Positions 26,383 to 50,063 of a stretch of 64,000 bases of DNA are shown here, piece after piece. Where the stretch lies: IMG/VR virus record IMGVR_UViG_3300043603_000010, positions 26,648 to 90,647 of that record. One strand, written 5' to 3'. Both the position numbers and the translations under genes were made by a program. A model generated the notes under the pieces. That model did no database searches and was not told where the DNA came from. It saw nothing but the letters and a program-made list of their open reading frames with translations. This stretch comes from a virus. Lineage: Duplodnaviria > Caudoviricetes. Each line of letters opens with the position of its first letter. Positions within the stretch are counted from its first letter, which is position 1.

Positions 26383-26847
26383 TCAGATCAGACGGGACAG
26401 CTGGTCGACGTCGGCCAGGGCGTCGTTGACCGCGTCCTCCAACTGGTGGCGGACAGCCATCTGCTCGCCCTCATAGGAGACGAACCAGCTGCCGGTGCCG
26501 TCCTCCCACTCGGTCTCCGCCGCGTACGGCTCGCCCCGGTAGGTGAAGGTGTACGCGCTGGGGAGCCCGTTGGCGCCGGTCTCCGCTGCGGTCAGCACGA
26601 CCGTGCTGCCGTCGGGACGGAGGTGACCGAGAGTGCCAAGGGGAGCTTCGTCCGCCAGGATCTCCTCTGGACCGGCGTACTCGTTGCGCCCGTCGATCTC
26701 CGCGAACACTCCGGCGTTGTCCAGGGTGTCGAGGTCCCGGGCGATCTGCGCGTACACGCCGATCTTCCCGTCGGCCGCGATCTGCCGCAGCCGGGCCAGT
26801 GCCTCGCTGACCGCCGGAGTGACGTCCATGGGCTGGATCATGGTCAA
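26383..26847 (-). CDS. hypothetical protein
   Basis: ORF track; GAGAGGA upstream. Confidence 0.65.
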   Translation of the reverse strand: MTMIQPMDVTPAVSEALARLRQIAADGKIGVYAQIARDLDTLDNAGVFAEIDGRNEYAGPEEILADEAPLGTLGHLRPDGSTVVLTAAETGANGLPSAYTFTYRGEPYAAETEWEDGTGSWFVSYEGEQMAVRHQLEDAVNDALADVDQLSRLI

Positions 26848-43890: not shown

Positions 43891-46464
43891 CTAATGTACG
43901 GCGAGAGTTTCCCGGCCGATCCGTAGCAGGTCAGCCAGCCTTTCAGGGGTCATCCCGGGGTCCGCCTTGGCGTCCCGGTACGCGGCGTTCGCGTCGTCCC
44001 GGTCCCGGAGCATACGGAACTTCTGCTCCCACCGGGACCAGTGCTCCCAGTCGTCCAGCGCGCTCCGGCCGGAGGCGACCAGGGCCGCCAGCCGCTCCGG
44101 GCCGACCTCCGGATCCGCCTTCGCCTCGCGCCACAACCGGTTCGCGTCCTCCTTCGTGCGCACCAGCGAGAACGAGACCTCCCAGCTCGGCAGACGGGGC
44201 TGGGAAGGCGCGGCCATCGCCATGACCTTCTCCGCCAGTGCCGCGACGGACGCCGGGGTCTCCGGCGGGACCGCCCGCAGTTCCGCAGCGCTGGCCACCC
44301 TGCCGACCTCCGCAGGAACCTCGGATGCGAACCCCAGTTCCGCGCGCACCTGTCCACGGTTCAGGACGGCCGGGGGCAGGTGCGCGTCCAGTTCGTCCTT
44401 GGCCTGCCGGGTCAGCGGCGCGTCCCGGGGGTCCCCGCCGTCAGCGCTCGGGGCGTACCCGGTGTCGCGCGGATCGGCGTCCGGACCGTCCACCGGGTCG
44501 GGGACGTCGATCAGCGCGAAGTCGACCTTGTTGCGGTTCAGCGCCCGGACGTCGGCGCACACCTGCGCGATGCGCCAGCCCTTGTCGATCGGGACGGTGT
44601 GCAAGGTGTCCCCGCGCCCGTCCTGCGGCATGTGGACCACGACGGCTTCGGTCTCACTGACCACGATGGGCCTCCCGTCCCCGTCGACGGGCCGGACCCA
44701 CTGCCAGTTCGCCGCGTCGATCTTGTCTCCCTCGCCGGTCCAGACGCAGACTCCGTTCTCGTTGAACCCGTGGGCGTAGACAGCCAACTGCGCAGCTATC
44801 TCATCCTTCCCCCAGGTCAGCTCGCCGGTCTTCTTGTCCACGATCAGGTGCACGCCATCCTCGGTCCTGCGCCAGACCTGGTCACCGCGCCCGGCCACCC
44901 TCATCCCGGGCAGCGCCGTGGTGAACTCGATCAGCGAGGGGACCACCTCGAACCCCGACGCCTCCACCAGGTCGCGGTACCGGCGCACGGCCGCGCGGTG
45001 CTCCTTCGGCACGGCGTCCACGGTGATCATCCCGGCGTCCACGTTCTCGGTGAACTTGTGCACCTGGGTACCGATGGACGACTTGCCCTGCTCCTTGGTC
45101 TTCGCCGCGTCCTTGGCCCGGCCCGCCAGCACGTTGAGCGCCTGCTTCTCGGTCTTGACCACGGTGGCGACGTCGAACCCGGCTACCCTGGCCTGCCGCA
45201 TCAGGGCTGAGACGGCTTCGCCGACCGAGCCGTCCCGGACCATGCCGACCAGGGCGCAGCGCAGTTCCCAGTCGAACAGCGCCCGGTGGTCGGACGCGGC
45301 CTTGACGAAGGTCGTGCACCTGCTGAACGCGGTCAGCTTGCCCGTCCTCGGGTGCGGCAGCCGGTACTGGTTGTTGCCGTTCATCGGCGCGGCGTCGGCC
45401 ACCCGGCGCGGCCGGACCTGCTTCGGCTGCGTCCGGCGCAGCTTCGCCAGGTCCTCCTCCGCCATGTCCTCCTGTATCCCGCAGCAGTCCTCGCTCTGGT
45501 ACTCGCCGTCCCCGGTGGCGCGGATCAGGGACCCCTCGGGGAACCACTCTCCGCAGGGGCCGCAGGTGCCGTCGTACGTCGCCCTGAAGTACGGCCCGGG
45601 ACCGGAGTCGTCCCCGGGGCCCGACCCGGCGAGGAACGCGGCAGCGTCGGCGTCCTGGTCACCGGAGACCACCGGCGCGGACCGCGTGCCCAGGAACGCG
45701 GCAGCGTCGGCGTCCTGGTCGGCCGCCGGAGAGCGCGGCGCCGTGGCACCGGAGCGGTCCAGGTTGTTGCGGAACGTCCTGTCGGTGCCGGACACGCGGT
45801 CTCCCTCGGGATCGGGGCGGTACTTCTGCTTCAGCGCGGCCACCTGCGGGGAGAGCTCCGCCGCCCGGGACAGGATGTCATCGGTGCTGACGACGGCGAA
45901 CGGGTCGGGAGCAGGTCCCTTCCGGGACGGCAGGGCGTCCAGTTCACTGCGCGGGTCGGCGCGGCGCCGGTCGATCTCCGCCTGCTGCTCAGGGGTGCGG
46001 CCGTCATCCGGCTGCTGGTCGGAGAACGGGTTGACTCCGGCCCAGGAGGGCTGGCGCCTGGGTCCGTCGTGGTCGTCCAGACCGTTCAGACCCACGTCCG
46101 GGCGCACGCCGTACTCGTCTGCCGCGTTGTCCACAGCGGCGGCCTGGGACCAGACCTCCTCCGGGACGTCCGGCGCGGCCAGCACTTCGCGGGCGTCGCG
46201 CAGGTCCTCCCGGGTCGGACGCGGGTCGTTGGCCGGGTGCTGCACGGCCCACTGCGCCATCTGGGCGTGGAAGTCGGCGTCACTCTCCTCCGGCAGCCGG
46301 ACCGGCAGCGGCGGCGTGTCGGCTTCCAGCGGGAGCGTGCTGCCGCCTCCGCAGGGGTTCTGCCGGGGCCCGTGGCTGCGCACCCGGCCGTTCTTCGTCA
46401 GGGTGATGTCGTCGCGCAGGCACACCCGGCAGGTGCCGGTGGGCTTGTCCGTCGTCTCGGTCAT
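43891..46464 (-). CDS. Cas4/RecE-like PD-(D/E)XK exonuclease with long N- and C-terminal extensions
   Basis: FSRCTT, IGTQVH, AGRGD..., IVDKKTG, AAQLAVYAHG nuclease motifs. Confidence 0.8.
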   Translation of the reverse strand: MTETTDKPTGTCRVCLRDDITLTKNGRVRSHGPRQNPCGGGSTLPLEADTPPLPVRLPEESDADFHAQMAQWAVQHPANDPRPTREDLRDAREVLAAPDVPEEVWSQAAAVDNAADEYGVRPDVGLNGLDDHDGPRRQPSWAGVNPFSDQQPDDGRTPEQQAEIDRRRADPRSELDALPSRKGPAPDPFAVVSTDDILSRAAELSPQVAALKQKYRPDPEGDRVSGTDRTFRNNLDRSGATAPRSPAADQDADAAAFLGTRSAPVVSGDQDADAAAFLAGSGPGDDSGPGPYFRATYDGTCGPCGEWFPEGSLIRATGDGEYQSEDCCGIQEDMAEEDLAKLRRTQPKQVRPRRVADAAPMNGNNQYRLPHPRTGKLTAFSRCTTFVKAASDHRALFDWELRCALVGMVRDGSVGEAVSALMRQARVAGFDVATVVKTEKQALNVLAGRAKDAAKTKEQGKSSIGTQVHKFTENVDAGMITVDAVPKEHRAAVRRYRDLVEASGFEVVPSLIEFTTALPGMRVAGRGDQVWRRTEDGVHLIVDKKTGELTWGKDEIAAQLAVYAHGFNENGVCVWTGEGDKIDAANWQWVRPVDGDGRPIVVSETEAVVVHMPQDGRGDTLHTVPIDKGWRIAQVCADVRALNRNKVDFALIDVPDPVDGPDADPRDTGYAPSADGGDPRDAPLTRQAKDELDAHLPPAVLNRGQVRAELGFASEVPAEVGRVASAAELRAVPPETPASVAALAEKVMAMAAPSQPRLPSWEVSFSLVRTKEDANRLWREAKADPEVGPERLAALVASGRSALDDWEHWSRWEQKFRMLRDRDDANAAYRDAKADPGMTPERLADLLRIGRETLAVH

Positions 46465-46691
46465 CCGTCCTCTCCTCTCACCAGTGCGTTGAACAGCTTG
46501 AACAGGATGTAGGGCCAGATCAGCAGCAGCTTGGCGGCGACCATCGGGAAGTCGTCCTCCAGCTGGTCCAGGATCAGGTCCGGATCCTCCTTGTAGTCGT
46601 GGGGCCACAGCCTGATCATGATGACCAGGACCAGGACGACCCCCAGCCACCCGACCAGCCAGGCGATCAGCACTTCTGCTACGGGGTTCAT
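46461..46691 (-). CDS. small membrane protein
   Basis: Two hydrophobic helices; AAGGAGAG RBS. Confidence 0.7.
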   Translation of the reverse strand: MNPVAEVLIAWLVGWLGVVLVLVIMIRLWPHDYKEDPDLILDQLEDDFPMVAAKLLLIWPYILFKLFNALVRGEDG

Positions 46692-46728: not shown

Positions 46729-49251
46729 TCAGCCTCCCACCTTCCGCATGTGCCGGTCCATGGCCCGGCTGGCTTCGTGCACGGCTACCAGGTCGGAGAC
46801 CTGGCCCATGTTCATGAACGGCGTGATCTGATCGTTCAGGCCGATCCGGCGGGCCCGGGAGACCAGCGGCAGGGACGGCGGCTTGCGCTTCCAGGACGCG
46901 CCACGGCGCACGTTCAGGTCGGACATCTGGTCAGCCACCTCTTCCGCCCACGCCATCGCCAGACCCATCGGCAGGGCGCGGTGCTCGGTGTACACCGACT
47001 TCCCGGCCAGGTCGACGGTGATCACGTCCCACTGCCCGGGGAACTCCCGGGCGGGCCAGAGCGCGACGTGCCCAGCCGGAGTCGGGACGAACTGCACGCC
47101 CGCGTACGTCCGCAGCCAGTTCTGCGACGACGCGGCGAAGACGTCCAGGTCCCGCTGCTTGATGACGAACCGGACCGACCCGGCGGACACCGGGGCGTTG
47201 GAGCGCTCCTCCTGGGAGACGGCCGCCTCCATCAGCGTCTCGCCCTCGCGGACGGAGAGGACTTCGCCCTCCGACAGGTCCTCCAGGGTGGCCAGCGTGC
47301 CGCCGGTGCCGCCCAGCACCAGCAGCAGCGCGTCCTGCTTGCCCGGGTAGGGGCGCAGCGCGCGTCCGGCCATCTGCTGGAACAGCGGTGCCGACCGGGT
47401 CGGCCGGGCGATCACCGCGCAGTCGATCCACGGGAAGTCCGCGCCCTCGGTGAGGACGCCGACGTTCACGATGGCCTGGAGCGCGCCGGTCCGGGACGCT
47501 TCGTAGATCCGCTGGCGCTCGGGGTGCGGTGTCGTCCCGGTGACGGTGCCGCAGCCGATACCGACGGCAGCCAGCTCCCGGGCGACCGCTGCGGCGACCG
47601 ACACCAGCGGCGTGAACACGAGCATCCGGCGGTCCCGGGCGTGCTCCGCCACGGCGCGGGCGACGAACTTCGGCGCCTCCGCCTCCAGCATCGCCTCACC
47701 CAGCGCCCGGTCCTGGTAGTCCCCACCGGAGCGCTTCACACCGGACAGGTCCATCTCCATGCCGACGCCCACCGCGCGCACGTCGGCGAGGTAGCCGCGA
47801 GCGATCATCCACAGCACGGTCTTCCGGTACGCCACACCGTCCCAGGCGGAGCCCAGCCCGACACCGTCCCCGCGCGCCAGCGTGGCGGTGAAGCCGATGT
47901 TCCGCGCGCCGGGGAACGCTTCGCGGATCCGGACATATGAGCTTGAAATAGAATGATGGCAGTTGTGCACAACGGTTCCGCCGTTGATCAAGTAGGTGTG
48001 CGTGGTGTCCACTGCGATGTTGTAGACCAGACCGTTCGGACACACTCCTCCGTACGTTCCATCGCTTCCAGGTTCGAGAACCTCAACGTGATCCACCCCA
48101 AGGAAGCCAGGCGTGCGTCCCGGCGCTGATCCGATTTTTGGCGGGCCAGAGGACAGTGCGACCCCCCGTCCACTTCTACGCACACCTTCATCGCCGGGTG
48201 AGCGATGTCTGCTTTGTAGTGCCGGGGATGCTCCCCGTCGCCCGGCACTACTGTAACTTCCGTCGGCCACCCCAGCAGGGACGCCAGCTTGGCCTGAGCC
48301 TCCGGCAGCGGCTTCCCGTTCCCACCTTGTACGGACGGCTTGTGCTCGATACTCCGGAGAGTTGCCGCCATTTTGGCCCGCGTCTCCGGAGAGTGCATGG
48401 GGTTCTTCCGGCGCATCCGCTCCGACGCGTACTTCTGGTTGGTCCTGGCCATCCGTTCGGACGATGCCCGGCGCACCCATGTGTCTCGGCACGCATCCGA
48501 GCAGTACGTCCGCCCTCTGCTCCGATAGCTGTCGATCTTCGATTTGCTGATCAGAGTTACCTGAGAACCGCACTCCGTGCACACTGCTTCTATCGGCGTT
48601 CGCGTCATGTGCAAACGATAGCACCCGGACACCATTCGAAAGCTCCCCGGCCTGACGCCAACCTGCGGCAGTCATCACCGGGTGATTCGGCGTACACACG
48701 AAGAACGATCCATTGCCCAGAGTGACTCGGACCAGGGCGGACGGCCGCTTGTGCATGGTCTGGGTCACATACCGCGATTCCCGCAGACCGGTCGCTTCGT
48801 TGTACGACGGCACCAGATCCCCGACCCGCAACATCTCGATCGGAACGTCCCCGACCAGAGTTCCCGCCGGGAAGCACTCGTCATGGACGACCATGCCGAA
48901 CTCCCCGGCGTCCACCAGCTTCCTCAGCCGGGCCGCGCGGGACGCGGTCTGCACGCTGGCGACCACGACCGGCGCGGCCACGTCGTCGTCCTTCGCCTGG
49001 ACCCGGCCGACGGTCAGGTGCGGCGCCACCCGGAGCAGCTTGTCCACGGTCTGCCGGGCCAGTTCGTCCCGGTGGACCAGGACCAGGGTGCGCCCGCCGG
49101 TGCTGTCGGCGTACTCCTTGACCAGGTGGGACAGGACGACGGTCTTGCCCGCGCCGGTCGGCAGCACGACGGCCGGACGGACCAGGTCGGACGCGGTCAC
49201 CGCGTCCACGCATTCGCGCTGGTAGGGCCGCAGGGGGAGCAGGTCACTCAT
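46729..49251 (-). CDS. SF2 (DEAD/DEAH-like) helicase containing an intein
   Basis: LRPYQ, LPTGAGKT, VVHDE|C...HN|CHH, GFTAT, NVGVLTEGADFP, QQMAGRALRP; true start ATG 49251. Confidence 0.92.
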   Translation of the reverse strand: MSDLLPLRPYQRECVDAVTASDLVRPAVVLPTGAGKTVVLSHLVKEYADSTGGRTLVLVHRDELARQTVDKLLRVAPHLTVGRVQAKDDDVAAPVVVASVQTASRAARLRKLVDAGEFGMVVHDECFPAGTLVGDVPIEMLRVGDLVPSYNEATGLRESRYVTQTMHKRPSALVRVTLGNGSFFVCTPNHPVMTAAGWRQAGELSNGVRVLSFAHDANADRSSVHGVRFSGNSDQQIEDRQLSEQRADVLLGCVPRHMGAPGIVRTDGQDQPEVRVGADAPEEPHALSGDAGQNGGNSPEYRAQAVRTRWEREAAAGGSGQAGVPAGVADGSYSSAGRRGASPALQSRHRSPGDEGVRRSGRGVALSSGPPKIGSAPGRTPGFLGVDHVEVLEPGSDGTYGGVCPNGLVYNIAVDTTHTYLINGGTVVHNCHHSISSSYVRIREAFPGARNIGFTATLARGDGVGLGSAWDGVAYRKTVLWMIARGYLADVRAVGVGMEMDLSGVKRSGGDYQDRALGEAMLEAEAPKFVARAVAEHARDRRMLVFTPLVSVAAAVARELAAVGIGCGTVTGTTPHPERQRIYEASRTGALQAIVNVGVLTEGADFPWIDCAVIARPTRSAPLFQQMAGRALRPYPGKQDALLLVLGGTGGTLATLEDLSEGEVLSVREGETLMEAAVSQEERSNAPVSAGSVRFVIKQRDLDVFAASSQNWLRTYAGVQFVPTPAGHVALWPAREFPGQWDVITVDLAGKSVYTEHRALPMGLAMAWAEEVADQMSDLNVRRGASWKRKPPSLPLVSRARRIGLNDQITPFMNMGQVSDLVAVHEASRAMDRHMRKVGG
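47962..48876 (-). mobile_element. intein (305 aa) inserted in helicase motif II
   Basis: N-terminal CFPAGTLV, block B CTPNHPVMT, block F VYNIAV...HTY, C-terminal VVHN followed by Cys. Confidence 0.93.
47988..48608 (-). CDS. Vsr/DUF559-like endonuclease nested out of frame within the intein
   Basis: CTECG...YCSDAC Zn motif, NPMHSPETRAKMA (NUMOD3-like), YKADIA...VEVDGGSH...DARLASLGWITLRFSN. Confidence 0.88.
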   Translation of the reverse strand: MTRTPIEAVCTECGSQVTLISKSKIDSYRSRGRTYCSDACRDTWVRRASSERMARTNQKYASERMRRKNPMHSPETRAKMAATLRSIEHKPSVQGGNGKPLPEAQAKLASLLGWPTEVTVVPGDGEHPRHYKADIAHPAMKVCVEVDGGSHCPLARQKSDQRRDARLASLGWITLRFSNLEAMERTEECVRTVWSTTSQWTPRTPT

Positions 49252-49711
49252 CGCTGTCCTCCGGATGCTCCGAGACCCAGGTGCGCACGGCCTGTTCCAG
49301 CGCACGCATCCCGGCCAGTGCCTTCTCCCGGTACTCCAGGCCCTCCGGGGACTGCTCCTTGACCTTCTGGTTCGCTGCCAGCTGCGCGTTCCACACCATC
49401 CGGCGAGTGATCCGGTCCACGTCCCGGGCCAGGCTCCCCACAGCGTCCAGCCAGTCGGGGTCCACCGGGTTCCAGTACGGCGGAGGGACGCTGAGCGCGT
49501 GCTCAGCGGCTGTCTCCTTGCGCTGGTGCCGCACCGTCGTGAACTCCCCGACCACGGACCCGCATCCACACCCCTGCGGGTACCTGCGGTCCGCGTTGGG
49601 GCGCTTCCAGCCGCAGCGTGAGCACGTCCAGTGTGCGCAGACCGTGCACATGTGCGCGGACCAGTCGGTCCGCCGGGTCAGCCGTGGCTGCCGCCAGTAG
49701 TCCTCAGCCAT
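49244..49711 (-). CDS. hypothetical protein with Cys-rich N-terminal domain
   Basis: CTVC..WTCSRC...GCGC. Confidence 0.6.
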   Translation of the reverse strand: MAEDYWRQPRLTRRTDWSAHMCTVCAHWTCSRCGWKRPNADRRYPQGCGCGSVVGEFTTVRHQRKETAAEHALSVPPPYWNPVDPDWLDAVGSLARDVDRITRRMVWNAQLAANQKVKEQSPEGLEYREKALAGMRALEQAVRTWVSEHPEDSDE

Positions 49712-50063
49712 CCGAGGCCAGCTCCTGCGGCGCACCGGCGGGACGGCTGTCGATGTCGGCGATCCAGGCGAACCCGACGGCGATCACCTGGAGCAGTTCG
49801 GTACGCAGCCGGACCGGGTCGGACTCCGCATACGCTTCATGGACTTCTTCGTCCAGGATCAGGCGCCAGTCGACCCGGCCGCCACGGGCCGCCGTCTGGC
49901 AGGTGCTCCGTGCCAGGTCGGCGTCCCGCGCGAACTGCTCACCGCCGGTGCCGTCGGGGTGGTGCTGGTCGCCGAACTTCGCGATCTGGCGCGCCCTCTC
50001 GTCGTCGACCTCCTCAGCCAGCGGGCCGACTCCGGGGGTGCGGAACAGGAACGGGTAGCTCAT
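49704..50063 (-). CDS. MazG-like nucleotide pyrophosphohydrolase
   Basis: ILDEEVHEA...ELLQVIAV EExxE/ELxQ pattern. Confidence 0.6.
   Translation of the reverse strand: MSYPFLFRTPGVGPLAEEVDDERARQIAKFGDQHHPDGTGGEQFARDADLARSTCQTAARGGRVDWRLILDEEVHEAYAESDPVRLRTELLQVIAVGFAWIADIDSRPAGAPQELASDG

Follow-up and report, generated by a model that had tools for sequence, protein, structure and literature searches.

The locus described here lies in a tailed phage (Duplodnaviria; Caudoviricetes) and consists of a helicase gene interrupted by an intein, the DNA of which carries a second open reading frame (ORF) on the same strand. The phage is IMG/VR record IMGVR_UViG_3300043603_000010, a genome of 90.6 kb that is rated complete by CheckV and has a G+C (GC) content of 68-74%. 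The window analyzed is a stretch of 64,000 nucleotides (nt) of this record (positions 26,648 to 90,647), and all coordinates refer to it. The minus strand of the window codes at 46729-49251 for a superfamily 2 (SF2) DNA helicase of the ResIII/DEAD type, recognized by its matches to Pfam ResIII (5.9e-21), Pfam Helicase_C (1e-11) and phrog_16 "DNA helicase" (2.6e-74); its start was placed by alignment to homologs and by a Shine-Dalgarno (SD) sequence. The gene is read as a precursor of 840 amino acids (aa), which would be reduced to 535 aa once spliced, versus 545-571 aa in the intein-free homologs. An earlier note, made from the sequence of this stretch alone, had placed here an intein with an endonuclease encoded in a different frame, and the analysis that follows starts from that claim.

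The class-1 intein occupies positions 47962-48876 in the helicase frame, as the earlier note had it, and is 305 aa long, running on the minus strand from Cys1 to a final His-Asn followed by Cys+1. It splits helicase motif II between the glutamate and the cysteine (VVHDE|C...VVHN|CHH). An alignment of eight helicases delimits an N-extein of 125 aa that ends in the motif II residues ...VVHDE (48877-49251), while the ORF and the alignment give a C-extein of 410 aa that begins with CHHSISS... (46729-47961). The splicing blocks, which the note had judged intact, are indeed complete. Among 30 aligned inteins, Cys1 (in CFPAGTLV), residues T62 and H65 of block B (T62-P-N-H65) and N305 are invariant, H304 is at least 90% conserved, and Cys+1 is invariant or nearly so; Cys1 is present at 74 of 74 loci. 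Conservation in the C-terminal blocks F and G (...VYNIAV..HTY..VVHN) extends to Y285, N286, V289, H304 and N305, and the intein passes the Pfam PT-HINT cut-off (30.1 bits versus 27.7).

The AlphaFold2 (AF2) model divides the intein into three parts. The N-terminal half of the Hint splicing fold corresponds to intein aa 1-93 (48598-48876) with a pLDDT score (predicted local distance difference test) of 92-98, and the C-terminal half, with blocks F and G, to aa 251-305 (47962-48126; pLDDT 77-97). These two flanking parts are predicted to fold as a mini-intein, since Foldseek matched the model to the mini-inteins Mtu RecA, Ssp DnaB and gp41-1 with a probability of 1.0 and returned 34 PDB matches at E<=1e-3 (TM-score, given as TMt, of up to 0.79), which among the matches listed were all inteins or Hint domains. 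Between them, the linker of aa 94-250 (48127-48597) is stop-free in the helicase frame, and by AF2, identity and stop counts it is neither conserved nor folded: over aa ~95-250 the pLDDT is ~40 and there is no secondary structure, the Pfam scan found no match in the helicase-frame middle of the intein, and identity among relatives is 24%. The note's description of the middle as odd filler was thus accurate. No LAGLIDADG or HNH domain is read in the intein frame, as would be the case in a canonical intein. Nor is there a stop after the N-intein with a new start before the C-intein, the arrangement of fractured genes, as 46729-49251 is a single unbroken ORF here and likewise in the relatives. 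An intein-free allele of the DE|CHH site also exists, as the helicase of Mycobacterium phage Kratio has an uninterrupted LVDECHHAG.

Overlapping this middle, and sharing the strand of the helicase but shifted by +1, is the nested ORF (47988-48635), which codes for 215 aa followed by a TGA and was recognized as a homing-endonuclease ORF by Pfam, its homologs and AF2. The stop codon ends 26 nt before the end of the intein, exactly where the note had put it. The predicted product starts with a Cys4 zinc ribbon (C19, C22, C45 and C49), followed by a helical NUMOD3-like region with the motif ...NPM...GGNG and by a DUF559/Vsr-like core. Pfam DUF559 (PF04480) matches it with 37.7 bits (E 2e-9; curated cut-off 20.6), and a protein search retrieved 84 homologs at E<=1e-5, 83 of them with PF04480. 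Among 23 aligned homologs (31-70% identity), C19, C22, C45, the GGNG motif, E154, D156, H160 and D169 are invariant, and with this alignment AF2 gave a model with a mean pLDDT of 84.4 in which zinc ribbon, helical region and alpha/beta core can be told apart. Foldseek matched the model best to 3hrl, a DUF559 protein, and to 3r3p, the catalytic domain of I-Bth0305I (probability 1.0, TMt 0.65-0.69), with Vsr itself (1vsr) at rank 16; phmmer also matched 3hrl (E 9e-4). The core, delimited by homolog alignment, Foldseek and phmmer, covers endonuclease aa 125-207 (48015-48263) and includes the putative catalytic residues E154 (48174-48176), D156 (48168-48170), H160 (48156-48158) and D169 (48129-48131), which in the model would correspond to the EDxHD residues of I-Bth0305I. 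The Pfam match, the 84 homologs, the invariant residues and the confident fold establish that the nested ORF is a gene, and they bear out the claim of a complete endonuclease in another frame of the same strand.

We gauged selection on each frame by codon-position identity and by stop-avoidance tests, in which the synonymous codons of one ORF were shuffled, keeping the protein and the codon usage, and the stops appearing in the other frame were counted. Shuffling the nuclease codons gave a mean of 5.29 stops in the helicase frame, where none is observed (P(0)=0.002), and the reverse shuffle of the helicase-frame codons gave a mean of 3.79 stops in the nuclease frame (P(0)=0.0046), so that the DNA is not open in both frames by chance, in a region that the note, too, had described as open in both. 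The same is seen in the relatives. Eight loci have zero helicase-frame stops versus 4.7-13.4 expected (P<=0.002 at each), and 65 distinct IMG/VR loci have zero versus a median of 8.1 expected, with P<0.01 in 61 of the 65. As for what is conserved in each frame, all 28 pairs of eight loci gave identities of 0.58/0.64/0.37 at the three nuclease-frame codon positions of the nuclease core, as would be expected of an ordinary gene in the nuclease frame, and of 0.57/0.64/0.32 at the helicase-frame positions of the N-terminal splicing domain. In the middle of the intein, the same nucleotides code for amino acids that are 48% identical in the nuclease frame versus 24% in the helicase frame; therefore, the helicase frame is selected there only for openness, and the sequence of the linker is set by the overprinted nuclease gene. 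The selected frame switches along the intein, from the helicase frame in the N-terminal splicing domain to the nuclease frame in the middle. By the model coordinates, a further 139 nt (47988-48126) code for the folded C-terminal parts of the nuclease and of the Hint domain in two frames at once, and here third-position identity in the nuclease frame is higher, at 0.45 instead of 0.37, a modest indication of constraint from both frames.

The layout is far from unique to this phage. A profile-guided scan of IMG/VR found more than 389 relatives, and the best 80 loci, with GC contents of 0.30-0.68, were used for the analyses; at 79 of these 80 the nuclease is shifted by +1 relative to a long open host ORF. 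Among cultured phages, tblastn with the nuclease returned 41 records, and the gene was found within the helicase genes of Corynebacterium phage phi673 (53% identity), Vibrio phages CP-T1, 104E43.1 and 1.088.O, and Pseudomonas phage MR14 (~38% identity). In all five of these phages the annotated helicase coding sequence is uninterrupted and the nuclease is in its +1 frame, and in the five records inspected the only annotation over the nuclease is "helicase" or "hypothetical protein". A search of genome contigs with a profile from a tighter alignment added one contig of an Acidimicrobiaceae metagenome-assembled genome with the same layout, whereas a scan of genome contigs with the single nuclease protein found nothing, and a search of cultured phages at the DNA level gave short matches only. 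Antisense open frames over the region appeared at 5 of the 80 loci and were treated as by-products.

Some variation within the family was seen. The distance from the nuclease stop to the end of the intein takes only a few discrete values (8, 11, 20, 23, 26, 44 or 50 nt; loci L009-L088), which points to a small number of sub-lineages with nuclease tails that reach to different depths into the C-terminal splicing blocks. In Vibrio phages CP-T1 and 1.088.O (L002 and L005), the N-terminal zinc-ribbon module of the nested nuclease is duplicated, with two CxxC...CS..C units, and the inteins are ~50 aa longer. A metagenomic protein of 464 aa, P0088, has a ResIII N-extein, the N-intein and the nuclease fused in one frame. 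The first CxxC is missing, the protein stops where the nuclease does and has no C-terminal splicing domain, and it is a single sequence from a 2.4-kb contig; for these reasons we consider a mutational frameshift or a faulty assembly its most likely origin. Among longer proteins, a search retrieved no complete in-frame intein-nuclease, only P0088, although this is weak evidence.

As to how the nuclease would be made, the note had started the nested ORF at the ATG at 48608, which does exist and would give 206 aa. Nevertheless, the first ATG, at 48635 (codon 48633-48635), appears to be the better start, giving the 215 aa, as an SD-like GGGGAG (48643-48648) lies 7 nt upstream of it, embedded in intein codons. 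A start codon is found upstream of the first CxxC in all 68 distinct loci, and in 49 of them (72%) an SD-like motif precedes the nuclease start by 4-16 nt, 42 of these starts being ATG; the control, start-like codons in the +1 frame of the exteins, gave 17%. The SD of the Vibrio and Pseudomonas phages is GAGG and falls in the conserved D-E-V codons of the intein. Several loci also have a nuclease-frame stop immediately before the nuclease ATG, which rules out an origin by frameshift at those loci. Because of the SD enrichment, the stops directly before the ATG and the lack of a visible sigma-70-like promoter, internal initiation on the helicase mRNA seems the most likely route to the nuclease.

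The insertion site is nearly constant: the intein is at DE|C in 73 of the 74 cases with both ends resolved, the +1 residue is Cys at 72 of the 74 loci and Ser at 2, and by junction there are 71 HN|C, 1 HN|S and 3 SN|C, with the DEAH|C locus included. The exception is L077 (2-6982), where the same intein with its +1-frame nuclease is found one turn later, at DEAH|C...VHN|S, in a host ORF of 2327 aa with SNF2-related, Helicase_C and Eco57I-like methylase domains; here the intein seems to have changed extein by way of the shared motif II. In cultured phages, tblastn placed the helicase family in 612 records and the nuclease in only the 41 mentioned above, phi673 being the only actinophage among these. 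The distribution of the intein among helicase-bearing phages is sporadic, as would be expected for an active mobile element, and mobility may also be indicated by the GC content, which is 0.61-0.65 over the intein and 0.70-0.74 in its flanks. The only locus of the best 80 without the nested layout is L056 (3358-5626), where the nuclease homolog (213 aa; DUF559 3.3e-10) stands free and shares 35 nt with the start of a ResIII/DEAD helicase gene that has no intein and has DEAH as motif II. L056 is a candidate for the free-living form of the element, in the arrangement that would be expected of a free-living ancestor, and it fits the plausible scenario, already put forward in the note, in which a free-standing endonuclease invaded a mini-intein.

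Taken together, we can propose, with a probability of about 88%, that two overlapping genes, a cis-splicing helicase intein and a separately initiated homing nuclease in the +1 frame, make up a mobile intein at this locus. The splicing, internal initiation and homing that it would entail are well grounded in the anatomy of the locus and in the comparative evidence. Ribosomes in the helicase frame would produce the 840-aa precursor, in which the two Hint halves (intein aa 1-93 and 251-305) would fold together across a disordered loop of ~157 aa. Splicing would be of class 1, with a thioester at Cys1, transfer to Cys+1 and cyclization of Asn305, and it would restore motif II (DECHH) in the 535-aa helicase. 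Other ribosomes would initiate on the same mRNA at the internal GGGGAG-N7-ATG (48635) and read the +1 frame, releasing a free protein of 215 aa with the zinc ribbon, the helical DNA-binding region and a nuclease of the Vsr/DUF559 type (EDxHD-like). This protein would most likely cut the intein-less helicase alleles of related co-infecting phages near the DECHH codons, and recombinational repair would then copy the intein with its nested gene into the cut allele.

Various results weigh against this proposal. The intein scores 24.9 with Pfam Intein_splicing, under the cut-off of 35.8, so that PT-HINT alone passes, and the Foldseek E-values of the nuclease are modest (2e-3 to 7e-3) despite the probability of 1.0. 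No sigma-70-like promoter was seen in 47800-49400 of the window, the RNA structure around the nested start is not significant (z = -0.57), and in the window no stop occurs in the nuclease frame over the 12 codons upstream of its ATG, leaving room for a frameshift product. Finally, a pattern search with the single protein retrieved no close intein-free relative of this phage's helicase.

The last points but one bear on a programmed +1 ribosomal frameshift, by which the nuclease would be made as a fusion with the N-extein and N-intein, with no internal initiation; it would account for the 12 open codons and for the lack of a separate promoter in the window, and P0088 shows what the fused form would look like. 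We regard it as very unlikely, as the ATG has its own GGGGAG 7 nt upstream, the SD-like motif is present at 72% of the starts versus 17% in the control, and in several relatives the +1-frame stop directly before the ATG leaves no room for a shift. P0088 could also be invoked in favor of an artefact, either a frame left open by chance in high-GC DNA or a canonical in-frame intein-endonuclease split by one or two sequencing frameshifts, all the more in a genome of 68-74% GC, where long spurious ORFs are common (the window contains many). Frameshift errors were among the outcomes that the note itself had named as fatal to its claim. Yet the +1 layout is repeated in dozens of loci that are independent and divergent, with an identical offset at 79 of 80 and GC down to 0.30, and the helicase frame is open in all those tested, which excludes both sequencing frameshifts and a spurious GC-driven ORF; as the ORF also passes the Pfam cut-off, has 84 homologs and is confidently folded in the model, while P0088 is one sequence on a 2.4-kb contig, incomplete at both the zinc ribbon and the C-terminal splicing domain, we give this explanation practically no credit.

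Vsr-like endonucleases were first tied to inteins in split arrangements, where the 3' end of the nuclease overlaps the C-intein by 6-69 bp (PMC2677866), and an overlap between the nuclease 3' end and the C-terminal splicing domain is seen in the helicase intein as well. The helicase could accordingly be imagined as a fractured gene, made as two polypeptides joined by a trans-splicing split intein with a free-standing endonuclease between them, the open frame being incidental. However, no stop terminates the N-intein, and the helicase frame is free of stops over ~650 nt in 65 of 65 distinct loci (median of 8 expected), which implies that ribosomes read through and makes a fractured gene highly improbable. 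The remaining alternative concerns function rather than structure: the nested nuclease might be a decaying relic, or might have been recruited elsewhere, for example to exclude competing phages, and no longer drive homing. The theory of the homing cycle does predict decay of the endonuclease after fixation, and free-standing relatives exist (L056). Against this speak an intact ORF, the invariance of the catalytic and zinc-binding residues, a codon-position conservation in the nuclease frame equal to what a normal gene shows under purifying selection, and a distribution of the intein among helicase-bearing phages as sporadic as would be expected of an active mobile element. An exclusion role would in any case need the same biochemical activity, and we consider a relic or recruited nuclease improbable. 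The two-gene mobile intein remains the reading that we adopt below.

The caution of the note about prior reports was justified, since the principle of an endonuclease in an overlapping ORF of an intein is already published, and according to the citations goes back to Gorbalenya 1998. The closest known systems are the non-canonical inteins of actinobacteriophages, with the endonuclease in a separate overlapping ORF (Gosselin, Arsenault and Gogarten, bioRxiv 10.1101/2025.01.02.630785), which comprise antisense LAGLIDADG, antisense VSR-like and sense-strand endonuclease VII-like ("frame 3") nucleases in DNA polymerase, minor capsid, terminase and thymidylate synthase genes, and for which the authors propose that a free-standing endonuclease gene invaded the intein. 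Like them, the helicase intein is contiguous, with intact splicing blocks, an unstructured in-frame middle and a complete endonuclease in another frame. It differs in that their VSR-like endonucleases are antisense only, while this one is on the sense strand in +1; that the host is motif II of an SF2 helicase, no helicase being among the hosts of that survey; and that the family reaches Vibrio and Pseudomonas phages, with loci of 0.30-0.68 GC. The cyanobacterial dnaX intein has a sense-strand, out-of-frame LAGLIDADG endonuclease, with purifying selection in the endonuclease frame and relaxed selection in the extein frame (Gorbalenya 1998 as cited; Phillips, DeSimone and Gogarten, bioRxiv 10.64898/2026.09.14.751524). 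Both have a sense-strand endonuclease ORF over a contiguous intein and frame-dependent selection, but the nuclease is Vsr/DUF559 here, and the carriers are phage helicases instead of the dnaX of cellular cyanobacteria. The same paper states that few broadly distributed out-of-frame examples are documented, and the helicase inteins are a broadly distributed example of that kind.

In the fractured genes described by Dassa et al. 2009 (PMC2677866), split inteins flank a free-standing gene for a Vsr-like or GIY-YIG endonuclease, and the host is divided between two ORFs, the first closed by a stop and the second opened by a new start after a spacer of 27-51 nt. The endonuclease superfamily, the DNA metabolism targets in phages and the overlap between the endonuclease 3' end and the intein's C-terminal part are shared, but the host frame here is continuous, without a stop, and under selection to be so. 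I-Bth0305I, from a group I intron in recA of phage 0305phi8-36, is the founding EDxHD/Vsr-like homing endonuclease and the one from which the biochemistry of the group is known (Taylor et al. 2011, PMC3239194; PDB 3R3P). Our nuclease has the same fold in the catalytic domain (Foldseek probability 1.0, TMt 0.65-0.68), the same order of an N-terminal DNA-binding region before a C-terminal PD-(D/E)xK-type core, and also a phage host, although identity in the core is only ~20%, the carrier is an intein and not an intron, and cleavage is predicted. In the ShiLan-type insertions, an HNH endonuclease that is out of frame lies inside the methylase gene of a phage (Arsenault et al. 2025, PMC11855218). 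There too the endonuclease is overprinted on an insert that is open in the host frame, but the insert has no splicing domain and is retained in the host protein, while here a complete Hint domain flanks the nested gene. What may be new is the combination of nuclease, strand and host: in the literature searched, which did not extend to subscription journals, we did not find the sense strand, the +1 frame, a Vsr/DUF559 nuclease, SF2 helicase motif II and a wide distribution together.

Frame offset and insertion site are constant across phages of Actinomycetota and Gammaproteobacteria with loci of 0.30-0.68 GC, while the nucleases are only ~40% identical. We lean toward seeing the +1-frame Vsr/DUF559 nuclease in the helicase DE|CHH intein as an old and stable architecture, and not as a passing intermediate toward an in-frame or split intein. 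If so, this could be the most widespread family of out-of-frame inteins so far, largely unannotated; since gene callers leave the nested ORF without annotation, such inteins may pass for decaying inteins or mini-inteins. Intein mobility would not require an endonuclease domain in frame, as an overprinted separate gene could take its place in a pairing that is stable over very long divergence. This favors the model of "splicing first, invasion by free-standing gene" for the gain of endonucleases by inteins, and it bears on the limits to which DNA can be shared between two reading frames. Protein engineers could be interested both in a small Hint domain that tolerates a disordered loop of ~157 aa and in a compact Vsr-type nuclease with a predicted natural target.

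A second type of intein was seen next to the family intein in one gene. The gene at L007:1329-5129, on a contig shared with L009, codes for a 1267-aa helicase with an intein in the P-loop (TGAGK|G...THN|T), the middle of which is LAGLIDADG-like and in frame (LLHGLMDGDGS). The DE|CHH intein and its overprinted nuclease are present in it as well, so that a canonical and a non-canonical intein are found in one gene. Concerning the helicase gene of the window, the ORF delimited mechanically is 46729-49569 on the minus strand, with a GTG at 49569 at its head, and reaches 106 codons upstream of the ATG at 49251 (49244-49569). The start is most likely this ATG rather than the GTG, judging from the alignment to seven homologs and from a GGAGGA that precedes it by 5 nt. 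The upstream gene (49244-49735, minus strand) overlaps the helicase by its 3' end, its TGA stop being 5 nt inside the helicase gene, and directly downstream of the helicase lies an ORF of 919 aa (43891-46650, minus strand).

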